In this document: piece after piece, positions 14,093 to 58,551 of the stretch | How positions within the stretch are numbered: the stretch's first letter is position 1 | Layout: each line of letters starts with the position of its first letter | Assembly (NCBI GenBank): GCA_037140955.1 | Contig: JBAXDL010000002.1 | Coordinates: forward strand, 105,846 to 169,845 | Length of the DNA stretch: 64,000 nucleotides | Source of the DNA: a bacterium | Lineage (GTDB): Bacteria > Patescibacteriota > Minisyncoccia > Moranbacterales > GWC2-37-73 | Direction of reading: 5' to 3' | Position numbers and translations under genes: made by a program | The notes under the pieces: model-generated | The model's input: the letters and a program-made list of their open reading frames with translations, nothing else | Databases searched by the model: none | Told to the model about the DNA's origin: nothing

Positions 14093-15688
14093 CTATAAGT
14101 CAGTTCCCGAATATGAAAGATTTAAGCTTTTGTTGATCAGTGGAAAGTCAGGCACGATGTTTCCTGGTCCCATGATTCCAAACAAAGCCCAATTGCAAAA
14201 TGATGGATCACGCGGAAAGCATCTTTCAATCACACAATTTTTAATTTCCAAAGCACAAAGAACTTCACCTCTCCATGACTCAACTGCGCCAAGAGCAAAA
14301 CCATCTTTGATCTGGAAAGTTGATTTCGTTTCACCCTCTGGAATGTTTTTGACAATTTTTTCAATCAATTCCATTGTTGCATCAAGTTCATTGATGCGCA
14401 TGAGATATCTGGCATGCACATCACCTTTCTGCGCACTAGCAACAACAACTGGAAATTTTTCGTAGCAAGCATAGGCATGATCTCTTCTGGTGTCACGATC
14501 AAGGCCTGAGGCGCGAGCTGCTATTCCAAGTGCGCCCAATGCCTTTGCCGCATCAAGTGGAAGCACACCGGTTGTTTGCAAGCGATCAAGAAAACCATCT
14601 GACTCTAAAGCCAATGTCACTATTTTTTTCATTTCAATCCAAGCCTCATTTCCAATTGTAAAAAGTTTTTCTAACTTCTCAGGTGATAAATCAAATTCAA
14701 CTCCGCCGGGAATTATATATCCCCTCCAAAAACGATTGCCAAAAACTTCATCAGAAACACGCATTAATCTTTCCTTGATGCGAAAACCATTGGCAGCAAT
14801 GAAACTATATCCAGTTCCCATTCCTCCAATGTTGGCCAAGTCATGAATATGCATGGTCAACCTTTCAAGTTCGCAAACAAGCATGCGTAGCATTTGAGCC
14901 CTCTGCGAAACAACTGTTCCAGCAATTTTTTCAGCCGCTTGAACATATGCTAGAGCGTGAGCTGCTGCCATGTCGCCAGAAAGTCTTTCCACAAACGGAA
15001 GAGCATTTTCCACGATCTTCCCTTCAAGTAATTTTTCAACGCCCTTGTGGGTGAAAAATAATTTTCCTTCCAAGGTTAAGATTCTTTCGCCAGCAACATT
15101 GAAACGAAAATGCCCTGGTTCAATTATTCCAGCATGAATAGGGCCCACTGGAATCTCATAGATTCCCTCTCCAGAGACATGATGCATTGGATATTCCACA
15201 TTGGCTTTTTCCATTTTCTTGTTCCAGGCAAAATCTTTTCTGAGTGGAAACTGACCAACTGGCACATTTTCATGTGAAACCAAGCGACGCGGATCAGGAT
15301 GTCCCTCGGCAATGATGCCAAACATATCTTGCATATAGCGCTCATACCAATGTGCGGCCATTATTGTAGCTGTTAGTGCTGGATATTTTGGATTATTTTC
15401 TGGCAAAGCAGCAGAAAGATTCAGCCACTCGCCTGTTTTATCATTTCCAAAAATAACATGCACGCCAAAAGATTCATTTTCTTTTCGATCATCACTGCCG
15501 TACAAAAGCGACAAAAACAAACCATGAGCCTCAACAAGAACAGTTGAAATTCTTGCAAAATCACTGCTTTCAACAGTTGCCACGGTTGTGTCATTTTTAA
15601 TTTCAACAACTTTTATTTCCGGAAAAATTTTAATTATTTCTGATATTTTCATTTGATTATTTTGAGATATAAATAATATTTCTAGCAA
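14093..15688 (-). CDS. NuoC-NuoD fusion-like / group-4 [NiFe]-hydrogenase large-subunit-like protein lacking all Ni-Fe cysteine ligands (Ehr-type large subunit)
   Basis: N-terminal 30 kDa (NuoC/HycE N-term) region. The conserved GPIHAGIIEPGHFRF block. ERLSGDMAAAHALAY sits where hydrogenases have RxCGxCxxxHALA, so both Cys are replaced. The C-terminal DPSFCN does not match DPCxxC. The likely true start is the ATG at 15652 (MKISEII), 4 nt after the upstream stop. Confidence 0.75.
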   Translation of the reverse strand: MLEILFISQNNQMKISEIIKIFPEIKVVEIKNDTTVATVESSDFARISTVLVEAHGLFLSLLYGSDDRKENESFGVHVIFGNDKTGEWLNLSAALPENNPKYPALTATIMAAHWYERYMQDMFGIIAEGHPDPRRLVSHENVPVGQFPLRKDFAWNKKMEKANVEYPMHHVSGEGIYEIPVGPIHAGIIEPGHFRFNVAGERILTLEGKLFFTHKGVEKLLEGKIVENALPFVERLSGDMAAAHALAYVQAAEKIAGTVVSQRAQMLRMLVCELERLTMHIHDLANIGGMGTGYSFIAANGFRIKERLMRVSDEVFGNRFWRGYIIPGGVEFDLSPEKLEKLFTIGNEAWIEMKKIVTLALESDGFLDRLQTTGVLPLDAAKALGALGIAARASGLDRDTRRDHAYACYEKFPVVVASAQKGDVHARYLMRINELDATMELIEKIVKNIPEGETKSTFQIKDGFALGAVESWRGEVLCALEIKNCVIERCFPRDPSFCNWALFGIMGPGNIVPDFPLINKSLNLSYSGTDL

Positions 15689-17132
15689 TCAAATCAATAA
15701 ATTTGACTCCATTTGGAGATGACAAAAAGAAAGTCAAGCAAATGATAATAACCAATTCCAAGGTCATCACTGAATGCGTAATATTCCATTTTTCCCTCTT
15801 TTGGTTTTGCTCATTTTCATTTCCACCAAAAAACATTCCAATGGTTGATCTCAGCATGGCAAAAGAAATCACACTGAGTGCTATCATGATCAAAATAGAA
15901 AGAAATGGATGCAGCAAGAAAGCATTAGCAAAAATCATATATTCACTAACAAACAAAACTGAAGGCGGCAAAGCGATGATAGACAAAATTCCCAGCAAGA
16001 ATAATATTGCAGTAAACGGAGCTCTCTTCAACAATCCTTGAACTTTGGATGTTTGCGTTGTCTGATAGTTTGTCAGAATCTCGCCAGCTCCAAAAAACAA
16101 CATTGATTTTGAAAAAGTGTGTCCAATCATATGCACCACAGCAGCAATAGCACCCACTGGAGAAAGAGCAAGTGCAAAAGTTATAATCCCCATATGCTCA
16201 ACACTAGAATAGGCTAGCATACGCTTGTAGTTGCTCTGCACCAACATCATGAAAGCAGGAATGACAATTGAAATAAAACCAAAAAACAAAAACAAGTGTC
16301 CAGTCCACTCATTGCTGCCAAGAGAAAGATCAGTAATGAACCTGAAACGAATAATTCCATATAGCGCAATGTTCAAAAGAATACCAGAGAAAAGTCCAGA
16401 AATTGGAGATGGTGCATTACTGTGCGCATCAGGAAGCCAAATGTGCATTGGAACCAAACCAAGTTTTGCACCAAAGCCAACAAAAATGAAAACAAAAGCC
16501 CATCTGATGATGTCGATTGAAATCAAATGTGCATTTTGAGCAAGTGCTGTCAGGGTGAAAATGTCACCACCAGTGACACCACCAATTGAGGCGCCATAAC
16601 CAAACAACAAAATTCCCAACAAACCAAGACTGATGCCTGTTGAACAAATAATAATATATTTCCAAGCAGCTTCAGCTGAAGTCTTCTTGCGATACAATCC
16701 AACCAAAAATGTTGATGACAAGGTTGTGCCTTCGAGTGCCATCCAGAGCAAGAGCGAATTGTTTGCAATCACAGTAAGCAGCATACACAAAGCAAAAACA
16801 TGAAACAAAGAAAAATACAATTTCAAGTCTCCAATTGAAATTATTTTTTCCTCATGTTCATGTCCAATATACCTGACACTGACAACAGCAGCACTGATAT
16901 ATAAAAAGGCCACCAATGAAACCATCAGAGCTGAAAAATTGTCCATCAGCCAAACAGAATTTGACCAAGAGCTGCTCATTTGAAAAAGCACAGGGAGCGA
17001 CATGGAAAAAACTGAAAGTCCGCCAACAATAGCAAGGATTGTGGTGCTCAAAAGAATCTGCTTTTTTTTGTTTGAAAAAATTGCAACAGCGGCGGCAGCA
17101 AGAACAGTGATGATTGTGATGATTGGTGTCAT
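15657..17132 (-). CDS. NuoM/NuoN/HyfF/MrpD-family antiporter-like membrane subunit
   Basis: Polytopic membrane protein with the family signature PMHIWLPDAHSNAPSPISGL. Confidence 0.75.
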   Translation of the reverse strand: MTPIITIITVLAAAAVAIFSNKKKQILLSTTILAIVGGLSVFSMSLPVLFQMSSSWSNSVWLMDNFSALMVSLVAFLYISAAVVSVRYIGHEHEEKIISIGDLKLYFSLFHVFALCMLLTVIANNSLLLWMALEGTTLSSTFLVGLYRKKTSAEAAWKYIIICSTGISLGLLGILLFGYGASIGGVTGGDIFTLTALAQNAHLISIDIIRWAFVFIFVGFGAKLGLVPMHIWLPDAHSNAPSPISGLFSGILLNIALYGIIRFRFITDLSLGSNEWTGHLFLFFGFISIVIPAFMMLVQSNYKRMLAYSSVEHMGIITFALALSPVGAIAAVVHMIGHTFSKSMLFFGAGEILTNYQTTQTSKVQGLLKRAPFTAILFLLGILSIIALPPSVLFVSEYMIFANAFLLHPFLSILIMIALSVISFAMLRSTIGMFFGGNENEQNQKREKWNITHSVMTLELVIIICLTFFLSSPNGVKFIDLIARNIIYISK

Positions 17133-17156
17133 AATATTTAAATATTTAAGTTGGTA

Positions 17157-18755
17157 TTATTCAGTTAAATTACGCAAATCCTCAGTGTCAGAGCTTCCAT
17201 AAAATTCTCTAATTCTTGAACCTAAAATGGACAAAATAAACGCACTAGCAACAATAATAACAAAAACTCCAAGTTCAATCAGCAGTGGCAATGACTTGAC
17301 CGTCACCAAAGTGAAAACAGTCAGACCATTTTCCATGATTAGCAATCCAAGGATTTGTGAGAAGATGTTGCGATGCACAATCATCGTTGCAAGTCCAAGT
17401 CCAATCAAAGCAATTGAGGCATATAGCAAAGTGTCAAATTCTACCATACCAAGAATTGGAGTATGCTTCATAATATAGAAAGTTGCACCCAAAATTAGCA
17501 CCACCACGAAATAACTAGTTGCTGGCCTCAAAAATGATGGTGAGCTGATCAATTCCTTATGTTTTCTTTGTGCATATTTGATCACTATTGGCACAAGGAT
17601 TGTCTTGATCAAAATTGTTACCAAGGCAAACAACCACAAATGCTTCATTTCACTTTTTTCCACCACAAAAGAAAGTCCAAAGGCAATACCAGCAATGCAG
17701 AATGAAGAAAATGCATAGTATCGAAGCATGACTTGAGCCCTAGCTCTACCAAAAATTAAAATCACAAAAAACACTGAAAGTGCAGCAAAAATGGTGTGAT
17801 ATTGAATGTCAACTTTCACAAAAGATGCAAAGAGCGCAATCAGCATGCCAAACATGGCAGTGAAAAATGCAATCGACATAAACTCTTGCATGCGATAAAA
17901 TCTCATCTTCACTACTGTTGATTCAAGTAGTGCGAGCAATCCCATACAAACCAAAACCTTTGCAATTGCAAAGAAAATCGCAAGCACAAGTGCACCAATT
18001 CCAAAACTACTTGCAGCAATAACGGTTCCAGGAAAAATAAAATTAGAAAGCAAAATTGCAAAAATAGTCATTTTCAGAGCACTGGCATATTCCAACATTG
18101 CCAAATATGGACCAGAATATTCCAAGATCATGGCTTCATGCACCATCGTCAGCTCAAGATGTGTTGCTGGGTTATCCACTGGATATCTAGCATTTTCTGC
18201 CAATGTCACTAAGAAAAAAGCAAACACCGAAAGCAGTAGATATGGATGAGCGAAAACAAGTGGTTGCCCAACAAGTCCATCAATGGCAAATGTTCCACCA
18301 ACGAAACTCATAGCAGCAAAAACCATGATGATTATTGGTTCAACCAAAGCAGCGATCGTCATTTCGCGACTAGAACCCATCCCACCAAAAGCACTGCCTG
18401 GATCAAGACCACCAAGCACCAAGAAAATAGAGCCTATCATCAAAATTCCAGCCACAACCAAAAAATCACTAGCACTTGCCAACTTCCCTCCAACAAACAT
18501 CAATGGCAAAATAAAAGCCAAGGAAAGTGTTGTTGAAAGAACCACATATGGAACAGCGCGGAAAACCCAAGAAGCACTGCTCGAAATCACCATTTGCTTC
18601 TTGAGCAAAGTCGCAAAAGTGTAATATGGCAAAAAAGGAGAAGCGCCCTGCCGCCCTTGCAAACGCGCTTTGCAAAATCGCACCAAGCCGCTGGCAAAAG
18701 GTGCTATCAATAACACGAAAATTCCTTGTAATAATGTTGCTAGAATTGGATTCAT
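17157..18755 (-). CDS. NuoH/HycD-like membrane subunit fused to a C-terminal NuoK/HyfE/MrpC-like segment
   Basis: N-terminal KARLQGRQG...LLKK matches the NuoH/HycD R-x-Q-x-R-x-GP motif. The C-terminal part has a NuoK-like TM helix with a buried Glu (ILGLLIMENGLTVF). At 532 aa it is much longer than NuoH alone. Confidence 0.65.
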   Translation of the reverse strand: MNPILATLLQGIFVLLIAPFASGLVRFCKARLQGRQGASPFLPYYTFATLLKKQMVISSSASWVFRAVPYVVLSTTLSLAFILPLMFVGGKLASASDFLVVAGILMIGSIFLVLGGLDPGSAFGGMGSSREMTIAALVEPIIIMVFAAMSFVGGTFAIDGLVGQPLVFAHPYLLLSVFAFFLVTLAENARYPVDNPATHLELTMVHEAMILEYSGPYLAMLEYASALKMTIFAILLSNFIFPGTVIAASSFGIGALVLAIFFAIAKVLVCMGLLALLESTVVKMRFYRMQEFMSIAFFTAMFGMLIALFASFVKVDIQYHTIFAALSVFFVILIFGRARAQVMLRYYAFSSFCIAGIAFGLSFVVEKSEMKHLWLFALVTILIKTILVPIVIKYAQRKHKELISSPSFLRPATSYFVVVLILGATFYIMKHTPILGMVEFDTLLYASIALIGLGLATMIVHRNIFSQILGLLIMENGLTVFTLVTVKSLPLLIELGVFVIIVASAFILSILGSRIREFYGSSDTEDLRNLTE

Positions 18756-18811
18756 AAGGCTTATAATTTATGCGCTTAATTTCTTACAGATAAAAATAAA
18801 AGTGAGTGGAG

Positions 18812-18906
18812 CTATTTCACTCTTTGGCCAATAGCCGGCGACAGCGGCTTCTTGAGCTTTTGGATATTGAGCATTTCATCCAAAAGCGTGCCAAAGAGTG
18901 AAATAG
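18812..18906. repeat. nested inverted repeat (17-bp outer arms CTATTTCACTCTTTGGC/GCCAAAGAGTGAAATAG, 10-bp inner stem GCTTTTGGAT/ATCCAAAAGC) in the intercistronic gap
   Basis: Perfect complementarity seen directly. GC-richer than the surroundings. Lies inside the presumptive operon transcript between the NuoL-like and NuoH-like genes. Confidence 0.6.
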
Positions 18907-18946
18907 TGAAACGAACAATTCATTATTGCTAAAGCAAAAAAACAGT

Positions 18947-20950
18947 CTATAAAACAACAAGCAATGTCACTATCAATGTTCCGAGCACAAACAATAGATA
19001 ATATTGAATGCGACCACCTTGAATCATTTTCATCCTTTCGGCAACAAAATTCAATATACCAGCAATTGGTTCATAGATCTTATCCTTCCAAATAGAACTA
19101 AATGACAAAGTTAACACATATTTTCGAACCCAGGGATTTGTCTCAACAACTGGTATTGATGACAAAACCTTGTCACGACCTAGCAATTGCAAAAAGAAAA
19201 AACGAATTGGTCCAGAAAAAGCAGTTCCAGAATATTGCATGGTTGCGTCTATCGCTTGACCACAATCCCAAGTCTTATAAATTCTTTGATCATCTTTTTT
19301 AACAACAAATTTATACAAAGCATAAACGCCAAGCAAAAATACAGCTGGCAATAAAAATACCAAAACAGAAGAAAGGTTGCTATTTACTAGCGAAGATGAA
19401 ACTGAAGGAGCAGTCGCAAAAAGTTCGCTGCGCACGCTGAGCCATTTGATTATTGTTTTGGCAAAAATTCCCAAAACAATCACACCCAATCCAAGTGTCA
19501 TAATTGGCGCACTCAACATGTAGTCTGTTTTCTCAGCTCTTCTTTCAACATGCTTTGACTTTGAAAGACCAAGCATTGAGATACCAAAAATTTTGATCAT
19601 AGCAAACACAGCCAACCCACTAACCAATCCGATCGTTGCAATGCTCAGCACAAGCACGATCATGGTTGTTGAATCCAAAAGAGAATTATGTAAAACATTG
19701 ATCACATTTTGAACCAATCCCCATTCCCCATAAAATGTTCCAAATGGAGGAAGTGGCAATGAAGACAGAATTACAAGCAAAAATGCAAAAGAAAAAATTG
19801 GCATGATGTTGGCCAAACCTCCCATGACCTCAATTCTTTTGGAATGAAAACGATTGATCAGCACACCACTGCTCAAGAACAAGCCAGTCTTGAACAAGGC
19901 ATGATTGATGGCATGAAAAATCGCAAACACCACAAAAGCATTTGAAATCAAGACAACACTGTCCGCGCGACTTTGACTCAAAATATAAATCGCGATTCCA
20001 AGAATAGTAAAAATGATTCCCATGTTTTCAATACTACTATAGGCAAAAGCTCTTTTCACATCTCTTTCAATGACAGCATACAAAACACCCACCACCGCTG
20101 AAAGCAAACCAAGAATGATCACAACCAATCCCGCCCAAGCTGGCAAATTTGTCAAAGAAAAAACTATTTTAATAAAACCAAACACCGCAACTTTTAGCAT
20201 CAGTCCGCTCATCAAAGCTGAAATGTTGCTTGGTGCTTGAGGATGAGCCTCCGGAAGCCAAACATGAAATGGCACAAGTCCAGCCTTTGAACCAAAGCCA
20301 AACAAAAACAACACAAAAACCAAGCCACTTAGCATTGGAGAAAGATTTGAACTAGCCACCGCAATGCCAGAAAAATCAGAAAATATTGACCCCCAACCAA
20401 GAATCAGAAAACCACCCAAGATTGCACTTGCGCCAAGATGGGTCATAATGAAATACAAAAAAGCAGCCCGAATTGATTCTGGCGACTTGTCGATCATAAC
20501 CAAGAAAAAAGAAGCAATCGACATCACCTCCCAAAAAAACAAAAATCCAAAAGCATTATTTGAAAACAAAACTCCTTGCATACCAAGCACAAAAAAAGCG
20601 GTCAGAAATTGCACAACGGAAGGATTGTATGATTCTTCATACAATTCCAAATATCTGGTTGCATAGACACCAACCAAACAGGAAACACCAGCAATAAGCG
20701 TGAAAAATATTCCAGACAAGAGATTGATCGAAGGAGCAAAATTGAAAAGCCAACTCCAAGAACCAAGCAAAATGCTTTTTGTGGAAAAATTAAACAAATA
20801 TAGCATTCCAAAAATAAAACCAACCAAATTTGTGAGCACAAAAAGTTGAGCTGATTTTCTCCATTGACCACCAATAATAGCCAAGCCACCAGCAAAAATA
20901 AGACCCAAGAAATAAATAAAAATACCGTATGCAATAAAATCTATGGTCAT
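18947..20950 (-). CDS. NuoL/HyfB/MrpA-family antiporter-like membrane subunit (667 aa)
   Basis: Polytopic membrane protein. PFHVWLPEAHPQAPSNISALMSG signature. Size matches HyfB/NuoL. Confidence 0.75.
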   Translation of the reverse strand: MTIDFIAYGIFIYFLGLIFAGGLAIIGGQWRKSAQLFVLTNLVGFIFGMLYLFNFSTKSILLGSWSWLFNFAPSINLLSGIFFTLIAGVSCLVGVYATRYLELYEESYNPSVVQFLTAFFVLGMQGVLFSNNAFGFLFFWEVMSIASFFLVMIDKSPESIRAAFLYFIMTHLGASAILGGFLILGWGSIFSDFSGIAVASSNLSPMLSGLVFVLFLFGFGSKAGLVPFHVWLPEAHPQAPSNISALMSGLMLKVAVFGFIKIVFSLTNLPAWAGLVVIILGLLSAVVGVLYAVIERDVKRAFAYSSIENMGIIFTILGIAIYILSQSRADSVVLISNAFVVFAIFHAINHALFKTGLFLSSGVLINRFHSKRIEVMGGLANIMPIFSFAFLLVILSSLPLPPFGTFYGEWGLVQNVINVLHNSLLDSTTMIVLVLSIATIGLVSGLAVFAMIKIFGISMLGLSKSKHVERRAEKTDYMLSAPIMTLGLGVIVLGIFAKTIIKWLSVRSELFATAPSVSSSLVNSNLSSVLVFLLPAVFLLGVYALYKFVVKKDDQRIYKTWDCGQAIDATMQYSGTAFSGPIRFFFLQLLGRDKVLSSIPVVETNPWVRKYVLTLSFSSIWKDKIYEPIAGILNFVAERMKMIQGGRIQYYLLFVLGTLIVTLLVVL

Positions 20951-20959
20951 AGGATTATA

Positions 20960-21499
20960 TTAAGAATTTTTCTGATTAATAGCATTTAAAACACCTTTTA
21001 ATATTGCAGTTGGAGAAGGTGGATCGCCAGCAATGCAAATATCAACAGGAATGACTTTGTCCAAACCACCAACCACAGCATAGGAATCCTTCCAAATGCC
21101 GCCATCAATAGCACCATCGCCAAGAGCGACCACGATACAGGGACTTGGAGCGGCTTCATAGGTTGTTTTCACGGCGTTTTCCAGGTTTCTGGTTATTGGT
21201 CCTGACACAAACAGCATGTCAGCATGCCTCGGAGACGCCACAAAAGAAAGACCAAAACGGTCAATGTCATAATATGCGTTGTTCAGAGCTGTAAATTCAA
21301 TTTCTTCTCCGTTAGTAGATCCTCCATCCACAGCCCGGATGCGCAAAGATCTGCCTCCATAGAGCCTTTTTATGTTTTCTTTAAGTTCTTTGCCAACAGC
21401 TTCAAATTCAGCATCAGTGGCATCAGGGCGTAAAGTTTTTTCATCAATTGTAACCTTTGGACCAAATAATAAGACCTTGAGTAATTGGAAAAATTTCAT
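20960..21499 (-). CDS. NuoB/HycG-like small subunit lacking all four [4Fe-4S] cysteine ligands (Ehr-type small subunit)
   Basis: Aligns with NuoB (DRFGLSFVASPRHADMLFVSGPIT; VIPVDICIAGDPPSP). CCxxE is replaced by GG/ST. GSCAxxGG is replaced by GDGAIDGG. GCPP is replaced by GDPP. Confidence 0.75.
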   Translation of the reverse strand: MKFFQLLKVLLFGPKVTIDEKTLRPDATDAEFEAVGKELKENIKRLYGGRSLRIRAVDGGSTNGEEIEFTALNNAYYDIDRFGLSFVASPRHADMLFVSGPITRNLENAVKTTYEAAPSPCIVVALGDGAIDGGIWKDSYAVVGGLDKVIPVDICIAGDPPSPTAILKGVLNAINQKNS

Positions 21500-21577: not shown

Positions 21578-22018
21578 CTAATCGATCGTCACACCATGTC
21601 TGCTGTGGTGCTTTTTGGCAACACGAATACGCGCTGTTTCTTTTTCAATTGCAGCGGCAACTTTTGCATATTCCAGCTCATTCATTGAGATTTTTTGCTT
21701 GCTAATTTCTTGAGCGCGGTCCCTTGCCTGCTGGGCACGCTTCACATCAATTTCAACTGCAGCTTCAGCTGTGTCAGCAAGTACAACCAAAACATTGTCA
21801 TTAAACTCAATAAAACCACCAGAAACGACCAATAATTTTTCCTTGCCACCAACTTTAAACATAATCTCACCAGCCTTGAGGCCAGCAATATATGAACAAT
21901 GATCGGGCATGATGGTCACTTCCCCATCAGCAACAGGCAAAGTTATTTGCTCTACCTCCTTTTCAAGCACGGTGCGTTCAGGAGTAACAATCTTAAAATT
22001 AATTTTACTTGTAGACAT
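21578..22018 (-). CDS. atpC: F1 ATP synthase epsilon subunit
   Basis: MSTSKINFKIVTPERTVLEKEV... is a typical epsilon N-terminal beta-sandwich plus C-terminal helices. The ATG is at 22018. The upstream ORF-track extension is unsupported. Confidence 0.85.
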   Translation of the reverse strand: MSTSKINFKIVTPERTVLEKEVEQITLPVADGEVTIMPDHCSYIAGLKAGEIMFKVGGKEKLLVVSGGFIEFNDNVLVVLADTAEAAVEIDVKRAQQARDRAQEISKQKISMNELEYAKVAAAIEKETARIRVAKKHHSRHGVTID

Positions 22019-22184
22019 AATATTAATTTCAAATCCAAATATCAAAATCTCAATTTCAAATAAATGACTCAAATCCAAATATCAAAATTTAGATTTTAAA
22101 ATTTTGGATTTTATTTGAAATTTTGATTTTAGATTTTAGATTTAAAAACAAATTTAAACAATAAATACTTTTAGGAATGTTAAT

Positions 22185-23567
<1,383 letters not shown>

Positions 23568-23608
23568 TTAATTAGAATAATTATACCTATTTAAAAGATT
23601 CTTATAAT

Positions 23609-23722
23609 TTCGAATTTCCAATTTCTAATTTTGAATCAATACTTAATTTCCAAATTTCTAATGTTTCAAACATTCACTCATTCGGACTTGATTCAAAATT
23701 CAAAATTCGAAATTCAAAATTG
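23609..23722. repeat. AT-rich atp-spacer repeat family, copy 1 (TCGAATTTCCAATTTCTAATTTTGAATCAAT...AATTTCTAATG...TTCAAAATTCGAAATTCAAAATT)
   Basis: Shares long near-identical stretches with 27838-27976 and 29971-30084. Confidence 0.6.
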
Positions 23723-23786
23723 TCTTCAAACTTCCCATCTGTCTACACCTTTCTTGAACCATAAACAGAATCAGAACTTCAAACTA

Positions 23787-23815
23787 TTGACAAAATGATG
23801 ATTTAGGTGTATTAT
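23787..23815 (+). promoter_or_regulatory. near-consensus sigma-70 promoter TTGACA-N17-TATTAT
   Basis: -35 at 23787-23792, -10 at 23810-23815. Drives the small plus-strand ORF at 23875. Confidence 0.5.
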
Positions 23816-23874
23816 ATATGGTTGATGATTCATTGAATCATTACAACAAAATTCTAACACAAAAGGAGTTAGAC

Positions 23875-24045
23875 ATGGAAAAGTTGAAAATTTTTGAAGG
23901 AAAGATCTCCAACCTAGAAACAGATGTCAACACCTGGTTATCTGAAAATCCAGATATCAAGATAATTGAAAGGAAATTTTCCACAGAAGTTGATCAGTCA
24001 TTCACAAGCAGGTTTGTATATGTAGCAATATTTTATACAAACTAA
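23875..24045 (+). CDS. small hypothetical protein (56 aa), antisense-oriented inside the atp operon
   Basis: ATG at 23875 preceded by AAGGAG at 6-nt spacing. The ORF-track start at 23818 overlaps the promoter -10 and is less likely. No recognisable family. Confidence 0.5.
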   Translation: MEKLKIFEGKISNLETDVNTWLSENPDIKIIERKFSTEVDQSFTSRFVYVAIFYTN

Positions 24046-24061
24046 TCAAAGAGTTATCCAG

Positions 24062-24102
24062 CCACCCTTTCGCAAGATTCTTTGCGATGGGTGGTTTTTT
24101 TT
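24062..24102 (+). terminator. intrinsic terminator
   Basis: Stem CCACCC..TTTCGCAA / TTGCGA..GGGTGG followed by T8. Confidence 0.6.
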
Positions 24103-24133
24103 ATGCGCCTATTTTTTCAAAGATACTATCAGA

Positions 24134-24173
24134 GTTCAATCCTGGATTCCTGATCAAGTCAGGAATGACAAGG
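24134..24173 (+). repeat. hairpin repeat family copy A (GTTCAATCCTGGATTCC-[CTGATCAAGTCAG]-GGAATGACAAGG)
   Basis: Conserved flanks shared with 27387-27425 and, in reverse complement, 27305-27340. The inner stem differs but stays self-complementary. Confidence 0.7.
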
Positions 24174-24195
24174 TTTTGAATTCTGAATTATATTT

Positions 24196-24224
24196 TTGAC
24201 TTTATTATTGTTCACTGATATATT
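24196..24224 (+). promoter_or_regulatory. sigma-70-like promoter TTGACT-N17-TATATT
   Basis: -35 at 24196-24201, -10 at 24219-24224. About 155-nt leader before the ORF at 24386. Confidence 0.45.
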
Positions 24225-24385
24225 TCATTTACGATTTTAAATTCGATAAGGAGGTTTTTTGTTTGAAACATTTTTGTTCTTTTTTTTGAAACACTGTCCA
24301 CCATTTTGCAACCTCATCACAATCGATTGAATTTGTATGACATTGTTCATGCAAAATAAAATCAAAAGACAAAGGAGAAACAAAA

Positions 24386-24559
24386 ATGAGAAAACTGTTT
24401 TTTGCAATCATTGCCATCATCATTTCAATCACCCCAGCCATTGCACATGAAATTGGCATGCAGCACGACCATCATGACAATTGGGAAACAGTCTCTGTTT
24501 TTGCCATTATTGCCTTGATAATTCTCGGCAGAGTAATTTACAAAAAAATGGAAAAATAA
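24386..24559 (+). CDS. small His-rich membrane/secreted protein (57 aa), not in the ORF track
   Basis: ATG at 24386 with AAGGAG 8 nt upstream. Sequence MRKLFFAIIAIIISITPAIA-HEIGMQHDHHDNWE-TVSVFAIIALIILGRVIYKKMEK (signal/TM, His-rich stretch, C-terminal TM). Followed by a strong terminator. Confidence 0.5.
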   Translation: MRKLFFAIIAIIISITPAIAHEIGMQHDHHDNWETVSVFAIIALIILGRVIYKKMEK

Positions 24560-24586
24560 AATACAATTCCAAACATCTCTACTATT

Positions 24587-24622
24587 GCGCCCACACAAAT
24601 CATTGTGTTGGGCGCGTTTTTT
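24587..24622 (+). terminator. intrinsic terminator
   Basis: GC-rich stem GCGCCCACACAA/TTGTGTTGGGCGC followed by GTTTTTT. Confidence 0.65.
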
Positions 24623-24659
24623 AATTTTCAAAAGTACTTATTTTCTACGAATTACAAAT

Positions 24660-25619
24660 TTATTCCAATGCTGCTCGTCCTGCAGAAATCTCAGCAATTT
24701 CCTGGGTAATCTTTCCTTGTCTGATCTGATTGTATGCCAAGGTCAAATCGTCGCTCATTTCTTTTGCCGCATCAGTTGCATTTCTCATGGCCATCATGCG
24801 AGCTGATTGCTCAGATGCTTGCGATTCAAGCACGCCATGGAAAAGCTGCATCTCAATCAAACGTGGAATAATAAATTCCAAAACCTCACTTGCACTTGGC
24901 TCAATCTTGTATTCAACTACTGGCTCCTCTAATCCATATTCTTTGGCAATAACATCCATTTCAGCAATTTGTTTTTCAATATCAATCTTGGAAATTGGCA
25001 ACACTTGGCGAATGCGAGTTTGCTGATTTACTGCTGAAATATAATCAGTATAAATCATCACAACTTTGTCATATTTTTTTGCCAAATAATCATCCATCAC
25101 AATTTTCGAAAGAGGTTTGATGTCGACAACTGTTGCAAACTTTCCACCATCTGGAAAAGCAGCAATAATTTCTTTTTGCATTTTCCTGACAATATTTCCA
25201 CCCTTTTTTCCAACCACAATAAAATCAACTTTCAAGTCTTCATTCTTAATCTTAGACTCAATTTTCTTTTTTCCAATTCTGTTTATTTTCAATTTTTCAG
25301 GATGCAAGATTTCTTCCTTTATTTTCTTGGCAACTTGCGTATTGAATGATCCACAAAGACCACGATTGGAAGTTATTGCAATCATCAAAACACTTTTCAC
25401 TTCACGCACCTCCAAAAATCCATAATTTTCTGATGACTCAAATGCCCTAGCAAGATTGGTTAGCACACTCCAAGCAGCATGAGCATAGGCCCTAATCCCA
25501 AGCACGCTTGCAACAGCTCTGCGCATTTTGGCAGCAGAAACCATCTCCATTGCTTTGGTGATTTTTCTTGTGCTATTTATCGACCGAATGCGTCGTTTTA
25601 TATCTAGTGAACTGGCCAT
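24660..25619 (-). CDS. atpG: F1 ATP synthase gamma subunit
   Basis: Full-length gamma similarity (MASSLDIKRRIRSINSTRKITKAMEMVSAAKMRRA...). Confidence 0.9.
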   Translation of the reverse strand: MASSLDIKRRIRSINSTRKITKAMEMVSAAKMRRAVASVLGIRAYAHAAWSVLTNLARAFESSENYGFLEVREVKSVLMIAITSNRGLCGSFNTQVAKKIKEEILHPEKLKINRIGKKKIESKIKNEDLKVDFIVVGKKGGNIVRKMQKEIIAAFPDGGKFATVVDIKPLSKIVMDDYLAKKYDKVVMIYTDYISAVNQQTRIRQVLPISKIDIEKQIAEMDVIAKEYGLEEPVVEYKIEPSASEVLEFIIPRLIEMQLFHGVLESQASEQSARMMAMRNATDAAKEMSDDLTLAYNQIRQGKITQEIAEISAGRAALE

Positions 25620-25656
25620 AGTATTTAATATTTTCTGAATTTATCCAGATTCCAAT

Positions 25657-25691
25657 TTTAAATTTTAAGTTTTAAATTTTAAATTAATTTT
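25657..25691. repeat. 36-nt AT-rich spacer repeat (TTTTAAATTTTAAGTTTTAAATTTTAAATTAATTTT), copy 1
   Basis: Exact repeat of 28485-28520. Both lie in atp intercistronic spacers. Confidence 0.7.
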
Positions 25692-25748
25692 CAAATATTT
25701 AAATATTTTTTATATTCTATTTAAAATTTTTAATTTAAAATTCTGCGT

Positions 25749-27257
25749 TTACGCGGTCTGATATATTTCTTTAAATTCCTTTATTGCCTTTTCCAATGCT
25801 GCCACAACCTCATCTGACAATTCTTTCTTTTCACCAATAAGTGTGATCAAATCTTTTGCATTTGAATCTAGATATTTGTGAAAATCAGCTTCCCAACTTC
25901 TGATGTTTTCAACTTCCACATCATCAACAAAACCATTGGTAAGAGCATACAAAATTGCAACTTGATGCTCAACAATCATTGGCTCATATTGCCCTTGCTT
26001 CAAAATCTCAACTGACCTTCTTCCTCTTTCGATTTGATTTCTGGTTTTTTCATCAAGATCAGATCCAAATTGCGCAAAAGCTTCCAATTCGCGAAATTGT
26101 GCCAATTCAAGTCTCATTTTTCCAGCCACTTTTTTCATGGCCTTGATTTGAGCAGATCCACCCACACGAGAAACAGAGAGACCAACATTCACAGCAGGAC
26201 GAATACCCTTGTAAAACAAATCTGATTCCAAGAAAATTTGACCATCAGTAATAGAAATAACATTGGTTGGGATGTAAGCTGAAACATCACCCGCCTGTGT
26301 TTCAATAATTGGAAGTGCTGTCATTGAGCCGCCCCCAAAATCAGCGTTTAATTTTGCACTTCTTTCCAAAAGACGAGAATGCAAATAAAAAACATCTCCA
26401 GGATATGCTTCGCGTCCTGGTGGTCGCTTCAAGATCAAGGAAATTTGACGATATGCCCAAGCGTGACGAGAAAGATCATCAAAAACAATTAGCACATCCT
26501 CTCCCTTGTCCATGAAATATTCTCCCAGCGCGCAACCTGAATATGGAGAAATATAGGAAAGAGCTGAAGATTCTGAAGCACCTGCAACCACAATGGTGGT
26601 ATATTCCATGGCTCCACGCTTTTCAAGCTCACCCAAAATTCTGGCAATCTTTGATTCTTTTTGTCCAATTGCAACATAAATGCATTTCATGTTTTGGCCT
26701 TTTTGATTGATGATAGTGTCAATTGCAATCGCTGTTTTTCCAGTTTGACGATCACCAATAATAAGCTCGCGTTGTCCTCGTCCAATTGGAATCATCGCAT
26801 CAATTGCTTTTATGCCAGTTTGCACAGGCTGATGAACTGACTTACGAGTAATCACGCCCGGTGCAATTTTTTCCACTGGATAAAATTTGTCAGCCACAAT
26901 ATCACCCTTTCCATCAACTGGAATTCCCAAAGGGTTGATCACGCGTCCAATCATAGCATCAGAAACTGGAATAGAGAGAACATTGCCGGTTGCCTTCACA
27001 ACATCTCCTTCTTTGATTCCAATATAATTTCCAAGCACAATGACACCAACTCGATCCTCTTCAAGATTAAGTGCTACACCGATTTCTCCATTAGGAAATT
27101 CAACCATTTCTGATGCCATCAAATCTGAAAGTCCTGAAACGCGAGCAACTCCATCGCCAATTTCAATAACGCTGCCAACCTTTTCAGTAGTGGTTTCGGT
27201 TCTGAATCCTTCAATCTGCTTTTTGAGTTGTTCTATTATGTAGTCCTTGTTAGCCAT
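25749..27257 (-). CDS. atpA: F1 ATP synthase alpha subunit
   Basis: Walker A GDRQTGKT. Full-length alpha similarity. Confidence 0.95.
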
Positions 27258-27304: not shown

Positions 27305-27340
27305 CGTGTCATTCCGGGCTCGACCCGGAATCCAGGATTA
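27305..27340 (-). repeat. hairpin repeat family copy C (reverse orientation; inner stem GGGCTCGACCC)
   Basis: Reverse complement reads AATCCTGGATTCC-GGGTCGAGCCC-GGAATGACACG. Forms an inverted pair with copy B 36 nt away. Confidence 0.7.
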
Positions 27341-27386: not shown

Positions 27387-27425
27387 TTCAAATCCTGGAT
27401 TCCCGCCTCCGCGGGAATGACAAGG
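27387..27425 (+). repeat. hairpin repeat family copy B (inner stem CGCCTCCGCG)
   Basis: GTTCAAATCCTGGATTCC-CGCCTCCGCG-GGAATGACAAGG. Abuts the atpH stop codon at 27426. Confidence 0.7.
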
Positions 27426-27827: not shown

Positions 27828-27837
27828 AAGTTTAATT

Positions 27838-27976
27838 TTGAATTTCCAATTTCGAATTTTGAATCAATCATTAATTAATGAATTTCTAATGCTTTAAACG
27901 TTCTGTCATTCTGATTTCATTTGAAATTTTTGCTCCAAGCTTATCCTTTGGGGACAAAATTCAGACTTCGAAATTC
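27838..27976. repeat. AT-rich atp-spacer repeat family, copy 2
   Basis: TTGAATTTCCAATTTCGAATTTTGAATCAATCATTAATTAATGAATTTCTAATGCTTTAAACGTT ... TTCAGACTTCGAAATT. Shares long blocks with 23609-23722 and 29971-30084. Confidence 0.6.
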
Positions 27977-28468: not shown

Positions 28469-28484
28469 AATTTTAATGCTCCAG

Positions 28485-28520
28485 TTTTAAATTTTAAGTT
28501 TTAAATTTTAAATTAATTTT
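28485..28520. repeat. 36-nt AT-rich spacer repeat, copy 2
   Basis: Identical to 25657-25691. Confidence 0.7.
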
Positions 28521-28641
28521 AAATTATCAAATGTTTAAAATTTAAGCATTTTGATTTGATTTAAAACTTATAATTTAAAATTTAAAATTATTTTTCAAAT
28601 AATCTCATTTTGCCTCACTCCGAAGAATGAGACATTTGAAA

Positions 28642-28902
<261 letters not shown>

Positions 28903-29093
28903 TTAGGGAGAATGGATATTGTCAACAAATTATTAATTAATTTTTAATTCACAATTTTTAATTTTTAAATAATTTCTCAATTCATAAATGATTTCCCTCA
29001 AAGGATAAACTTGAAGCAAAAAACATTTGAAAATTTTGATTTATTTGTAAAAATTAAAAATTTAAAATTAAAAATTCCAATACTTTGCATTGT

Positions 29094-29933: not shown

Positions 29934-29970
29934 CTTTGTAAATTAAAATCTGTAAAATGTTCACTACTCA

Positions 29971-30084
29971 AATTTCGAATTTCCAATTTTGAATTTTGAA
30001 TGAATTTCCAATGATTGAATTTTGAATGTTTCAAGCATTGCATCATTAAGATTTTATTCGAAATTCAAAATTCAGACTTCGAAA
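29971..30084. repeat. AT-rich atp-spacer repeat family, copy 3
   Basis: AATTTCGAATTTCCAATTTTGAATTTTGAATGAATTTCCAATG...TTCGAAATTCAAAATTCAGACTTCGAAATT. Confidence 0.6.
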
Positions 30085-30327
30085 TTATTTACTATTACCA
30101 TTATCCATTTCTCTCAGCCCAATTCTTATTATCATTACTATGGAGACAGCAAAGGCCGCTGCCACGCTAAACAAAAATGCCCAGGGAGTTGTTTGAAATG
30201 TTTTGTCTAGATATTTTCCAATCAAGACAGCAATCAAGACCGGTCCGACAATCCAAGAGCTTAGCCTCAAAAAAAGGATTGCTCCGGGTTGCCACCAACT
30301 CACGTTTTTATTTTGCTTATCCTCCAT
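30085..30327 (-). CDS. atpZ: AtpZ/AtpI-family small membrane protein preceding atpB
   Basis: 80 aa, two TM helices. Pattern WWQPGAILFLRLSSWIVGPVLIAVLIGKYLDKTFQTTPW resembles the ATPase_gene1 family. First gene of the operon. Confidence 0.55.
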   Translation of the reverse strand: MEDKQNKNVSWWQPGAILFLRLSSWIVGPVLIAVLIGKYLDKTFQTTPWAFLFSVAAAFAVSIVMIIRIGLREMDNGNSK

Positions 30328-31447: not shown

Positions 31448-31620
31448 AGCACACCTCCCAATGTGATTTTATGTTAATTTAATATGTTAACGAGCGAAAT
31501 TGAATTCTGCCACAAAAAACAAAATATTGCAAACCAATCAAATTGACTTTTGTCTTGATATTTGAAATAATACTACTTCAGCCAAGCTGAAATATTCTTT
31601 AACAACAAGGAGGTTATACA

Positions 31621-31947
31621 ATGAAGAGCACCAAGGAAATGGAAAATTTGGTGGCACTTGTTTATTCACCAAAGCACAGCTCATATCCAGAGGTAATGGC
31701 AGCATCAGACATTCCAGAGCTAGAAATAGACCTCGAGAAAGGAACATGGGCGCATGTAACAACATGGTCAAGCTCACAAGAAAAGCAGCCCAAAAAGATT
31801 GGTGAATACAACTATTTCATGAAGGACAGGAGCAGCGGTGTTATTGGGGTTTATGATCAAACAAATAGCAAGCACCTAACCTCCATGGTTCGAGATTGGC
31901 ATGATACGCTAGAAGCAAAAAATACAAATTGGAATTTCGTAGATTAA
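31621..31947 (+). CDS. hypothetical protein (108 aa)
   Basis: Strong SD AAGGAGG 8 nt upstream of the ATG. Divergent from the sigma factor gene. No recognisable family. Confidence 0.6.
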   Translation: MKSTKEMENLVALVYSPKHSSYPEVMAASDIPELEIDLEKGTWAHVTTWSSSQEKQPKKIGEYNYFMKDRSSGVIGVYDQTNSKHLTSMVRDWHDTLEAKNTNWNFVD

Positions 31948-31976
31948 AAACAAAAAAGAAGGAGTGGGGGTGCGCT

Positions 31977-32186
31977 ATGGTCGTAAAAACTATCCTATCA
32001 GGAGAAGAAAGGCTGACGCAGTCAAATTATCAAATTCAATTACTTGAAAAAGCCATTGAGAATCTGCGTGACTTCAACATTGGTGCAACACTAGTGCTTG
32101 ATTCTGGTCAAAGAATAACCATCAGCAAGGTCTTGGAAGGTAGCGATTATTCGACCAGACTACTCTCCGTAACAATCCAAAATTAA
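31977..32186 (+). CDS. hypothetical small protein (69 aa)
   Basis: ATG at 31977 preceded by GGAGTGGGGGTG. The ORF-track start at 31929 overlaps the upstream gene. Followed by a terminator. Confidence 0.45.
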   Translation: MVVKTILSGEERLTQSNYQIQLLEKAIENLRDFNIGATLVLDSGQRITISKVLEGSDYSTRLLSVTIQN

Positions 32187-32232
32187 ACAAAAAAGCCGCT
32201 AGCGAAAAAATTCGCAGCGGCTTTTGTTTTTG
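32186..32232. terminator. bidirectional intrinsic terminator
   Basis: Stem AGCCGCTAGCGAA/TTCGCAGCGGCT flanked by an A-run and TTTTGTTTTT. Between convergent genes. Confidence 0.55.
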
Positions 32233-32246
32233 CCAGAAGGTGGCAA

Positions 32247-34140: not shown

Positions 34141-35577
34141 TTATTTTATTCTTTGAAAAAGTGGCTGCACAATTCTTGTTTCAAGTGCAAGTTTTATTTT
34201 CTCGGAAGTTTCTGGCATAAAAGGAAGCAAGAGAGTTGCAATAATCTCCAAATCTAAAAGCAATTTCTGCATCACTTCTTTGAATTTTTCTTCATCATTT
34301 TTTGCCAACTCCCAAGGTTTATTATCCTCAATAAACTTGTTTGATTCCTTGACCAGTCCATTGATATATTCCAATGCACCATCGAAGTTGAATTCATTTA
34401 TGAAATTTAAAATTTTATCATTGGAAATTGATTGGGAATTGGAAATTGGAAATTGGAAATTATCTTGTGAAGCGAGTTTGATAACTCGCGAAACAAGATT
34501 CCCCAAACCATTTGCCAAATCAGCGTTGAATTTTTCGCTCATGCGTTCCATTGTCAAATCCAAATCATCTCCAAATGTTCCACCAGAGAGCAAAAGATAG
34601 CGCGTGCCATCCACTCCGAATTTTTCAAGCATTTGGTCGATGCCAATCACGTTGCCAAGAGTTTTGCTCATTTTTTTGCCACCAGAAAGAATGTGCCCAT
34701 GAATAAAAAAACTTTTAGGAAGATCGATTTCCAAATTCAAAAGAGTGGCAGCCCAAATTGTGCCATGCACACGTAAAATGTCCTTACCGAGCATTTGAAC
34801 ATCAGCGGGCCAAAACTTCAGCTTTTTGCTTTTAGCTTTTAGCTTTTCAGTTTCTCCATCCCAAACAAGACCGGTTATATAATTCAAAAATGCATCAATC
34901 CAAACATAGGTCGTGTGCTGCGAGTCAAAAGGAAGTGGAATTCCCCATTTCAAATTTTTGCGTGAAATTGAGACGTCTTCCAATTTTTCATTTTCCAAAA
35001 ATGACAAAATTTCTTTTTTGTATCGCTCTGGTTGAATTTTAAATTCATCTGATTTTATTCTGGAAATCAAAGTTTCCTGCCATTTGTTCATCTTCATCAA
35101 ATAACACTCTTCTTCCATCTCTTCTGGGGCAGCATTATGATCAGGACATTTTCCATCTACCAATTCATTTTCACTTTTGAATTGTTCACATCCAACGCAA
35201 TAAAGTCCCTTGTATGATCCCTTATAAATCGAACCATTGTCATGCAAAGTTTGCAAAACTTTTTGTACAGCCAACTTGTGAGCAGGCATTGTGGTGCGAA
35301 TGAAGCCATCATTGCTGATATTCAATGCTCGCCAAAGATCTTGAAAAATTTGTGCAAACCCATCCACGAATTTTTGAGGCTCAATCCCATCTTCCTTTGC
35401 CTTCTTTTCAATCTTGGCACCATGCTCATCAGTTCCAGTTAGAAAAAAGGTTTCCTTGCCCTGCAAACGATTGGCGCGCGCCAAAACATCACAAGCAATG
35501 GTGGTGTAGGCGTGGCCTATGTGCGGCTTGGCATTGGTATAATATATCGGCGTTGTAATGTAAAATTTATCTTTCAT
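34141..35577 (-). CDS. metG: methionyl-tRNA synthetase (core enzyme, no C-terminal appended domain)
   Basis: HIGH motif (PHIGHAY), KMSKS motif (KMSKT), a CxxC...CxxH zinc knuckle and an anticodon-binding helical domain. Confidence 0.9.
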   Translation of the reverse strand: MKDKFYITTPIYYTNAKPHIGHAYTTIACDVLARANRLQGKETFFLTGTDEHGAKIEKKAKEDGIEPQKFVDGFAQIFQDLWRALNISNDGFIRTTMPAHKLAVQKVLQTLHDNGSIYKGSYKGLYCVGCEQFKSENELVDGKCPDHNAAPEEMEEECYLMKMNKWQETLISRIKSDEFKIQPERYKKEILSFLENEKLEDVSISRKNLKWGIPLPFDSQHTTYVWIDAFLNYITGLVWDGETEKLKAKSKKLKFWPADVQMLGKDILRVHGTIWAATLLNLEIDLPKSFFIHGHILSGGKKMSKTLGNVIGIDQMLEKFGVDGTRYLLLSGGTFGDDLDLTMERMSEKFNADLANGLGNLVSRVIKLASQDNFQFPISNSQSISNDKILNFINEFNFDGALEYINGLVKESNKFIEDNKPWELAKNDEEKFKEVMQKLLLDLEIIATLLLPFMPETSEKIKLALETRIVQPLFQRIK

Positions 35578-58387: not shown

Positions 58388-58551
58388 TAAATAATTTCAA
58401 AATCCAAAAATCAAATACCAAATCAAATCCAAGTCTCAAGATAAAAAAATTTAAAAATATTATGCCCTATTTTTTAATTTGAAATTTGGATTTTGAAATT
58501 TGAAATTAATTTATCATTTGGATTTTGAAATTTGGATTTACCTATATGTTC

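Follow-up and report, generated by a model that had tools for sequence, protein, structure and literature searches.

The ATP synthase (atp) gene cluster examined here lies in a 64-kb window, the whole stretch of DNA that was analysed (64,000 nucleotides (nt) of contig JBAXDL010000002.1), from a metagenome-assembled genome (MAG) of an uncultured, low-GC member of the Patescibacteria (candidate phyla radiation, CPR). Between atpG and atpD the cluster is interrupted by two small genes on the opposite strand, which probably form a two-unit accessory cassette lodged in an insertion hotspot: a conserved frame, with a promoter at one end and a terminator plus tail at the other, would hold a swapped cargo consisting of a Shine–Dalgarno (SD) sequence and its coding sequence (CDS). 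On our best reading the cassette is exchangeable and similar to phage morons and PeSL (promoter early stem-loop) cassettes, and is not a dedicated regulator of the ATPase. We computed the geometry of the locus, its expression signals, their conservation relative to saturated neutral sites, the swap of cargo, the fold and family of the product of the first open reading frame (ORF1), the architecture of the second (ORF2), and the variability of the junction across relatives.

Two opposite-strand units fill the atpG–atpD gap

The ATP synthase genes, arranged as atpB-E-F-H-A-G-D-C, are all encoded on the minus strand. The gap between atpG (24660–25619) and atpD (22185–23558) measures 1,101 nt (23559–24659), the other atp spacers 106–230 nt, and it is filled by two monocistronic plus-strand units that part atpBEFHAG from atpDC. 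Each unit would be driven by a sigma70-type promoter and have a strong SD before a small ORF, with an intrinsic terminator and a short conserved tail behind it, and would be no part of the ATP synthase; transcription would start at promoters P1 and P2 and stop at terminators T1 and T2. An earlier note on this DNA had described two opposite-strand small genes, with promoters, SDs and terminators of their own, that split the atp operon, and every one of these elements was found in its place.

The first unit opens with a 64-nt block (23723–23786, plus strand; TCTTCAAACTTCC...CCATAAACAGAATCAGAAC...) that forms the left end of the conserved frame. It runs into P1 (23787–23815, plus strand), which matches the consensus at 11 of 12 positions, with a −35 TTGACA (23787–23792), a 17-nt spacer and a −10 TATTAT (23810–23815). 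By folding, the 5′ untranslated region (5′ UTR) carries a hairpin, UGAUGAUUC-AUU-GAAUCAUUA (23823–23843, plus strand); the 59-nt stretch around it (23822–23880), which includes a second small stem, has a folding free energy (ΔG) of −11.3 kcal/mol (z −2.6). An SD (AAGGAG, 23863–23868, plus strand) precedes ORF1 (23875–24045, plus strand; 56 amino acids (aa), soluble), which is followed by T1 (24060–24104, plus strand; ΔG −21.9 kcal/mol, z −3.6), a bulged hairpin with a 15-bp stem (24060–24096) and a U8 tract. A post-terminator tail motif, TTTTCAAAGATACTATCAGAGTTC (24114–24137, plus strand), marks the right end of the frame.

The second unit begins at P2 (24196–24224, plus strand; 10 of 12 matches), with a −35 TTGACT, a 17-nt spacer and a TG-extended −10 TATATT. 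ORF2 (24386–24559, plus strand; 57 aa, listed by NCBI as hypothetical protein WCI36_01805) is preceded by an SD (AAGGAG, 24372–24377, plus strand) and a 155-nt leader that contains a mini-ORF and folds no better than its shuffles (z 0.3). T2 (24587–24622, plus strand; ΔG −19.8 kcal/mol, z −5.2) consists of a hairpin (stem 24587–24615) and a U6 tract; it ends 38 nt from the atpG stop codon and is followed by a degenerate tail motif. Read on the minus strand, neither T1 nor T2 has a U-tail. A simple terminator scan missed both, probably owing to their bulged stems.

Between the tail motif and P2 lies a hairpin repeat resembling repetitive extragenic palindromes or miniature inverted-repeat transposable elements (TGTCATTCC-(palindromic core)-GGAATCCAGGATT; 24138–24170, minus strand). 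The window holds three copies (24138–24170, minus strand; 27307–27339, plus strand; 27391–27422, minus strand), with a chance expectation of 0. All three sit inside atp spacers, their cores vary yet remain self-complementary, and a related copy stands beside the end of atpG in the closest relative (locus L089, below).

Promoter-like strings are common in this region: 10 were found against 5.3 ± 2.9 expected from shuffles, a total not above chance, so the weight given to P1 and P2 comes from their placement and their conservation in relatives rather than from a count of sites. Promoter and ORF signals by themselves are weak evidence, and the comparison with relatives is decisive. Two further candidates were dropped: a minus-strand promoter overlapping P1, which lacks an acceptable −35, and a mini-peptide that can be read from the upstream block on the strand of the atp genes, which is not kept across relatives.

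Signals are conserved and coding segments differ in the closest relative

For comparison we retrieved 160 atpG loci from genomes and metagenomes. L089, the closest of them (88% identity in AtpG, 91% in AtpD), has an atpG–atpD gap of 1.5 kb, and the antisense strand of this gap can be aligned blockwise with the window. The P1 block with the 5′ UTR hairpin is 82% identical over 98 columns (the hairpin is kept with a shorter stem), T1 is 97% identical over 37 nt, the P2 −35 block 75% and the T2 region 80%, and the tail motif and the SD of gene 2 are conserved; downstream of the −35 block, P2 of L089 reads TGtTACTCT at 16-nt spacing. The coding slots of ORF1 and ORF2, at 35% and 22%, are unalignable. 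Fourfold-degenerate sites of atpG provide the neutral reference and are 46% identical (40/86). With signals at 75–97% and neutral sites at 46%, the signals are therefore constrained or repeatedly homogenised, while the coding cargo differs.

In L089 the first slot holds an 89-aa ORF unrelated to ORF1, and the second a 65-aa protein laid out like ORF2, with hydrophobic segments at 4–21 and 32–55, a basic tail and 0 His. BLASTP gave no alignment between ORF2 and this 65-aa protein, which are linked only by their position and architecture. The breakpoints of cargo replacement fall within ~20 nt of the CDS ends. We propose that SD and coding segment were exchanged among relatives through recombination at the conserved frame sequences, a process described for phage morons and for the PeSL cassettes of T4.

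A possible trace of such an exchange lies within the ORF2 leader at 24248–24289 (plus strand), where an SD (AAGGAGG) is followed by TTG AAA CAT TTT TGT TCT TTT TTT TGA (8 codons). This segment aligns with the SD and first codons (ATG AAA CGT TCT TTT GCC) of the 65-aa gene of L089, which indicates a putative stump of an older, L089-type gene 2, with the replacement breakpoint inside the old gene; it could alternatively be a small upstream ORF in the leader of ORF2.

L089 also has ~450 extra nt between its second unit and atpG (835–1290 of that locus), GC-richer than their surroundings and with several hairpins, which are not in the window and have no Rfam match. Rfam likewise gave no RNA family in the atpG–atpD gap of the window or in the loci L089, L110, L003 and L002.

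The frame recurs in further relatives at a variable junction

The frame was found in three more relatives. L003 (AtpG 75% identical) has, at atpG/atpD, the same upstream block and TTGACA-17-TATAAT before a 97-aa ORF, and a second copy in the atpH–atpA spacer before a 98-aa membrane protein; in L002 (78%) the frame stands at atpH/atpA, ahead of an 80-aa ORF. In L110 (68%), TTGACAAAAT is retained at the position of P1 in the atpG/atpD junction and is followed by TAATAT and a 114-aa protein. The block upstream of P1 is present in the window, in L089, twice in L003 and in L002, and across these frames the −35 hexamer and the 17-nt spacing are unchanged (5/5), while the −10 keeps its first T, second A and final T (TATTAT/TATACT/TATAAT/TATAAT/TACAAT). 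An AGGAG-type SD stands before the cargo in five of the six frames, whereas most host genes in the window, all atp genes among them, have none.

Within the block upstream of P1 lies an imperfect palindrome of 14 bp, CTCTATCyryGGCy - 6 nt - AGCCATAAACAGAG, which is weaker in the window copy and is found in relatives at 7836–7905 and 4019–4095 of L003 and at 4025–4100 of L002; it may bind a regulator or serve as an arm for recombination. The atpH/atpA copies have an extra 33–37 nt between the palindrome block and the −35.

At the other end of the frame, a tail with the consensus TTTTCAAA-nnn-ACTATCA(G/A)nA(T/C)TT closes seven of eight units (one in the window, two in L089, one in L110, two in L003 and one in L002), each time after a terminator hairpin of different sequence; the eighth tail, after T2 of the window, is degenerate. 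A motif scan found the tail nowhere else in the 64-kb window, and we rejected the idea that it is a general terminator feature of the genome, as it occurs there once.

The junction that houses the cassette is itself variable. Of 15 close genomes, counting the window and requiring an AtpG identity of 63% or more, nine have an atpG/atpD gap of more than 400 nt and six a gap of 33–171 nt. In one relative, whose AtpG is 79% identical, the operon is fully compact, and its junction and a second empty junction were read directly; in more distant bacteria the junction is typically 20–130 nt. Elsewhere the same site holds a GIY-YIG nuclease, 23S_rRNA_IVP proteins, an ORF6N protein and assorted small membrane proteins, and in L012 a Gp49/HTH_3 toxin–antitoxin pair; a Bro-N protein was seen beside such a pair. 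Other atp spacers (H/A, D/C, F/H, A/G) are sometimes filled too. We propose that the two units are lodged in a lineage-specific insertion hotspot of the atp cluster. The earlier note had offered an inserted module as an alternative and had suggested looking for a contiguous atpG–atpD junction in related genomes; six of the 15 close genomes have one, and relatives show either a contiguous junction of 33–62 nt or unrelated cargo at the site, which bears that alternative out. The opposite outcome that it had named, the same spacer without ORFs, was not what we found: relatives keep the regulatory frame with other ORFs inside.

A broader generalisation is possible, though we hold it only tentatively: this CPR clade may carry a hitherto undescribed family of mobile expression frames, with a ~110-nt promoter block on the left and a terminator plus TTTTCAAAnnnACTATCAG tail on the right, that shuttle small ORFan genes by recombination in the manner of PeSLs and lodge, by preference, antisense just upstream of the catalytic-subunit genes atpD and atpA, breaking the ancestral operon into separately promoted pieces.

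The two encoded proteins

Gene callers start ORF1 at an upstream ATG (23818; 75 aa), a form that is unlikely if P1 is used, because this ATG begins 3 nt after the −10 hexamer. For the 56-aa protein, an exhaustive phmmer search of 1.84 billion proteins recovered full-length homologues of 54–63 aa (39–43% identity, E 1e-4 to 1e-3) as well as two-domain versions; a word-indexed search of 5.8 billion proteins returned only ORF1 itself, and a profile search for the family added one further member. The phage family phrog_13248 is matched by seven of 11 ORF1-family members (best E 1.5e-7; ORF1 itself 4.4e-4), and PF10957 (Spore_Cse60) weakly by two of 11, with a best E of 0.0011, below the gathering threshold. 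ORF1 has no Pfam match even at E ≤ 10, and NCBIfam and PADLOC gave nothing usable.

AlphaFold2, run on the family alignment, predicts a beta-alpha-beta-beta arrangement with a predicted local distance difference test (pLDDT) score of 91 (strand 3–9, helix 11–24, strand 29–39, strand 46–55). The best structural matches in BFVD are phage proteins annotated "Sporulation protein Cse60" (TM-score 0.84 normalised to the query and 0.76 to the target, E 1.7e-4), and those in the PDB are Alba proteins; a PDB sequence search with the ORF1 profile gave chance matches only. The model and the family matches suggest that ORF1 encodes a cytoplasmic Cse60/CprV-like (Alba-like beta-alpha-beta-beta) protein of a family common in phage genomes. 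The same domain reappears as cargo in L110, where a Ser/Thr-rich linker in the 114-aa protein joins a signal peptide to an ORF1-family domain, which the A1 profile found independently (E 1e-6).

Two homologues, P0012 and P0015, belong to series of tiny genes on one strand, an arrangement typical of phages, and tblastn of ORF1, ORF2 and P0012 against 50,697 phage records gave nothing significant. The best match to ORF1, P0008, forms a unit by itself behind two tRNA genes on a CPR-like chromosome; its promoter is identical to P1 at 20 of 29 positions, and a small transmembrane (TM)/Cys-rich protein follows. This locus (L172, 5720–6600) lies between ftsEX and the 107-aa TM/Cys-rich protein with a C39 peptidase, with ftsZ a few kb off. 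It is a second case of a Cse60-like gene beside a small membrane or secreted protein, two features that are fused in one protein in L110.

ORF2 consists of a hydrophobic segment (residues 1–21, signal-peptide-like or TM), a His/Asp-rich linker (21–34), a TM segment (34–52) and a KKMEK tail. The part between the hydrophobic segments, HEIGMQHDHHDNWE, has 14 residues, with four His and several Asp/Glu. No match was found in Pfam, NCBIfam, PHROGs or PADLOC, and the word-indexed search of 5.8 billion proteins returned only the query. From its layout, ORF2 is predicted to be a small exported or membrane-anchored peptide. The homologue search that the earlier note had proposed for both proteins thus placed ORF1 in a family and found no relatives of ORF2. 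The two proteins might serve an accessory role at the cell envelope or in phage–host interaction, which is a guess.

Alternative explanations

One alternative is that both ORFs are spurious and that the gap is a bloated non-coding spacer whose AT-rich sequence throws up signal-like strings. The count of promoter-like sites agrees with this, as do the lack of an ORF2 homologue and the presence of ORFs of 55–76 aa in other frames of the gap, which leaves ORF length alone without significance. It nevertheless appears very improbable: the signals are far better conserved in L089 than neutral sites, ORF1 has full-length homologues and a confident structural model, and the SDs are correctly spaced. 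Over ORF1 the GC skew also flips, shifting from about −0.25 to about 0, and in a test of host codon usage ORF1 (+0.04) and ORF2 (+0.14) score highest among the gap ORFs (rivals, −0.04 to −0.42), both atypical for a host whose genes score 0.355 ± 0.13. Two specific roles for ORF2 had been raised. If its His/Asp-rich linker HEIGMQHDHHDNWE faced outside, ORF2 could be a membrane peptide that binds Cu, Ni or Zn; the four His and several acidic residues fit this, and cleavage after AIA would leave His as the mature N-terminus. The positional counterpart in L089, however, has 0 His, no metal-handling genes are adjacent and ORF2 has no family match. Metal binding, which the earlier note had entertained, is not supported and is the least probable of the explanations considered here. 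The note's other proposal, a toxin, fares little better. ORF2 would then be a membrane toxin like those of type I toxin–antitoxin systems, checked by antisense RNA from atpG read-through or a minus-strand promoter, with ORF1 as partner or antitoxin. Its 57 aa and hydrophobicity, the mini-ORF in its 155-nt leader, minus-strand promoter-like sites at 24631→24602 and 24214→24187 and the toxin–antitoxin modules at this junction in L012 speak for it. These minus-strand sites, though, are at chance level and not conserved in L089, the leader lacks significant structure, and none of Pfam, NCBIfam, PHROGs and PADLOC links ORF2 to a toxin or defence family. Typical type I toxins have a single TM segment, whereas ORF2 has two hydrophobic segments and a signal-peptide-like N-terminus (…PAIA|HE); ORF1 and ORF2 are moreover separate transcription units, and the ORF2 counterpart of L089 is paired with a different gene 1. 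We consider a toxin quite improbable.

More serious, if still unlikely, is that the act of transcription is what matters: P1 and P2 would have been selected for convergent, antisense transcription that blocks or tunes read-through from atpG into atpD or activates a divergent atpD promoter, setting the beta and epsilon subunits independently, with the ORFs incidental. The conservation of P1 and of the terminator–tail does not depend on the cargo, each of the six frames lies antisense immediately upstream of atpD or atpA, and read-through from atpG across the cassette is plausible given that T1 and T2 have no minus-strand U-tail. Against this, six of the 15 close genomes, one of them with 79% AtpG identity, have a contiguous junction of 33–171 nt and need no such device, the same junction elsewhere holds selfish genes on the sense strand, the six frames probably stem from just two or so independent insertions, and ORF1 belongs to a real, foldable protein family. 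Strong SDs are kept before unrelated cargo in a genome that rarely uses them, which argues that the proteins matter and not the mere act of transcription. T1 and T2 are also predicted to stop plus-strand transcripts before atpG, so that no antisense transcript would run into it. The antisense control of beta and epsilon suggested in the earlier note is geometrically possible but not directly supported, and sister lineages do without the cassette.

Several observations weigh against an exchangeable accessory cassette as well. Transcription, termination and translation of both units are predicted from sequence, and ORF2 and most of the cargo ORFs are ORFans whose coding status rests on context; PHROGs gave no match for eight other cargo ORFs. 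The frame was found only inside atp clusters, in a sample confined to the atp neighbourhoods of relatives, and has a single copy in the 64-kb window, so any mobility is conjectural. Nor could the cassette be tied to a recombinase or to an integrase such as integron gene cassettes depend on: none was noticed among the annotated neighbours, in a check that did not extend to matching the terminator hairpins against attC models. The frame motifs (P1, upstream block and tail) were not found in viral contigs, where the few matches look like chance and fall inside coding regions or at generic promoters. Finally, all six frames lie antisense just upstream of atpD or atpA, a placement that could hint at an atp-related role, although it probably goes back to two independent events only.

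Comparison with known systems

Morons of lambdoid phages and prophages are autonomous promoter–ORF–terminator units inserted between conserved genes. The cassette resembles them in having its own promoter and intrinsic terminator, in its position between two conserved genes, in its atypical codon usage and in being dispensable in relatives. It differs in that no prophage surrounds it, that its flanks are atp and hydrogenase-like host genes, and that it is oriented opposite to the host cluster.

In the PeSL cassettes of T4-like phages, a conserved terminator hairpin and promoter bracket small ORFs of unknown function (PMC2839356, PMC4122927). Here T1, the tail and the P2 −35 (24057–24205) likewise form a composite terminator and promoter between small ORFs, one that is kept in L089; genomes carry several copies (L003 has two P1 blocks, and L003, the window and L089 have two tails apiece); and close relatives differ by replacement or indel of an ORF exactly between conserved sequences. 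Recombination and circular intermediates have been shown or argued for PeSLs, whereas the cassette is known from sequence alone. It also sits in the atp cluster of a Patescibacteria chromosome, not in a phage hyperplastic region, and its motifs share no sequence with PeSLs, nor do the frame motifs occur in viral contigs beyond chance. Because of this chromosomal context and the absence of its motifs from viral contigs, the cassette is not a member of the moron or PeSL family.

For ORF1 the closest known protein is CprV (formerly Cse60/YteV) of Bacillus subtilis, which is reported to be Alba-like and mainly restricted to Bacillales (PMC13627676). Both are single domains of ~56–60 aa with an Alba-like beta-alpha-beta-beta fold. 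ORF1 itself does not match the PF10957 hidden Markov model, however; its host is non-sporulating; and the fusion to a signal peptide in L110 implies an extracytoplasmic location there. The Cse60/CprV family is marked by expression linked to sporulation (sigmaE) and by a role at the SpoIIIE septal pore. No spoIIIE or sporulation genes were seen in the annotation of the window, in which no systematic search for them was made.

As in integration hotspots and genomic islets, some relatives have nothing at the junction, whereas others have unrelated selfish or accessory genes there; it differs from them in lying inside a normally tightly coupled operon and in that a conserved regulatory frame, rather than whole mobile elements, makes up part of its content. 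Two things are new here: within the atp cluster of a CPR clade, a promoter/terminator frame that recurs while its ORFan cargo is swapped, and, among Patescibacteria, a protein resembling Cse60/CprV.

Genomic surroundings

The nearest named relative of the host by AtpG is a Candidatus Moraniibacteriota MAG (69% identity). The remaining stretch of the gap, upstream of atpD and divergent from P1 (23559–23722, minus strand), is AT-rich and 61% identical to L089, and contains (AATTTCN)n heptamer repeats that form an imperfect palindrome (arms 23606–23639 and 23688–23721), with a TATAAT 21 nt before the atpD ATG. We presume that it holds the atpD promoter or leader; expression of atpDC would then depend on a promoter of its own within this divergent 229-nt region, on transcription reading through from atpG, or on both.

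Such AT-rich heptamers, (AATTTCN)n or (NGAAATT)n, occur in every atp intergenic spacer as long imperfect palindromes (22018–22156, 23604–23721, 25654–25742, 27831–27890, 28480–28602, 28937–29076 and 29968–30088), and also at 34405–34463 and 58388–58537. The sister lineage with 79% AtpG identity has a compact atp operon without them. They could act as a promoter or UP element, serve in the processing or stability of RNA, or be selfish repeats.

Host genes without an SD include atpD (start at 23558) and the genes at 35581–36903, 49500–49889 and 18947–20950. A TATAAT-like hexamer often lies just 10–30 nt ahead of their start codons, which suggests that the mRNAs have short leaders or none. Strong SDs are confined to a few genes: those for the sigma factor and the small proteins of the islets, and a further one at 13242–13847.

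The remaining atp genes nearest the cassette are atpC (21578–22078, minus strand) and atpA (25749–27257, minus strand), and the cluster is neighboured by hydrogenase/Mrp-like, sigma-factor and Band_7 genes. Directly downstream of atpC lies a membrane-bound group-4-hydrogenase/Mrp-like module (14093–21499, minus strand) with the Pfam domains Oxidored_q6, Proton_antipo_M (twice), NADHdh and a fused Complex1_30kDa/49kDa; this is unusual in a CPR genome and suggests a coupled ion-motive system. A second opposite-strand islet (31540–32240, plus strand) lies between the sigma-factor and Band_7 genes, with a TTGACT promoter-like site, strong SDs, ORFs of 108 aa (31621–31947) and 69 aa (31977–32186) and a terminator at ~32195–32235; its codon usage is atypical, as in ORF1 and ORF2, and it has neither the P1 block nor the tail. 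Farther off, two giant proteins of 1,667 and more than 1,809 aa (53384–58387 and 58552–63981, minus strand) contain ~44 copies of a ~180-nt (60-aa) repeat of GDFNADGKTD-type (FG-GAP/VCBS-like) units, and another long ORF of 2,733 aa lies at 889–9090. A scan for tRNA and tmRNA genes found neither.

Implications

Taken alone, the finding discloses no new regulator of the ATP synthase. If our reading is correct, it would mean that a stoichiometry-sensitive, tightly coupled atp operon tolerates, and repeatedly gains, autonomous antisense units in the reduced genomes of CPR bacteria, and it would bear on how transcription is organised in this group, where most genes lack an SD and long AT-rich spacers separate the atp genes. 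The Cse60/CprV-like fold would extend beyond Bacillales and phages, and would include a secreted version. Frames with exchangeable cargo would further offer Patescibacteria a route for the birth and turnover of small ORFan proteins, and small exported or membrane proteins are prime candidates for host–epibiont or phage interactions in these bacteria.

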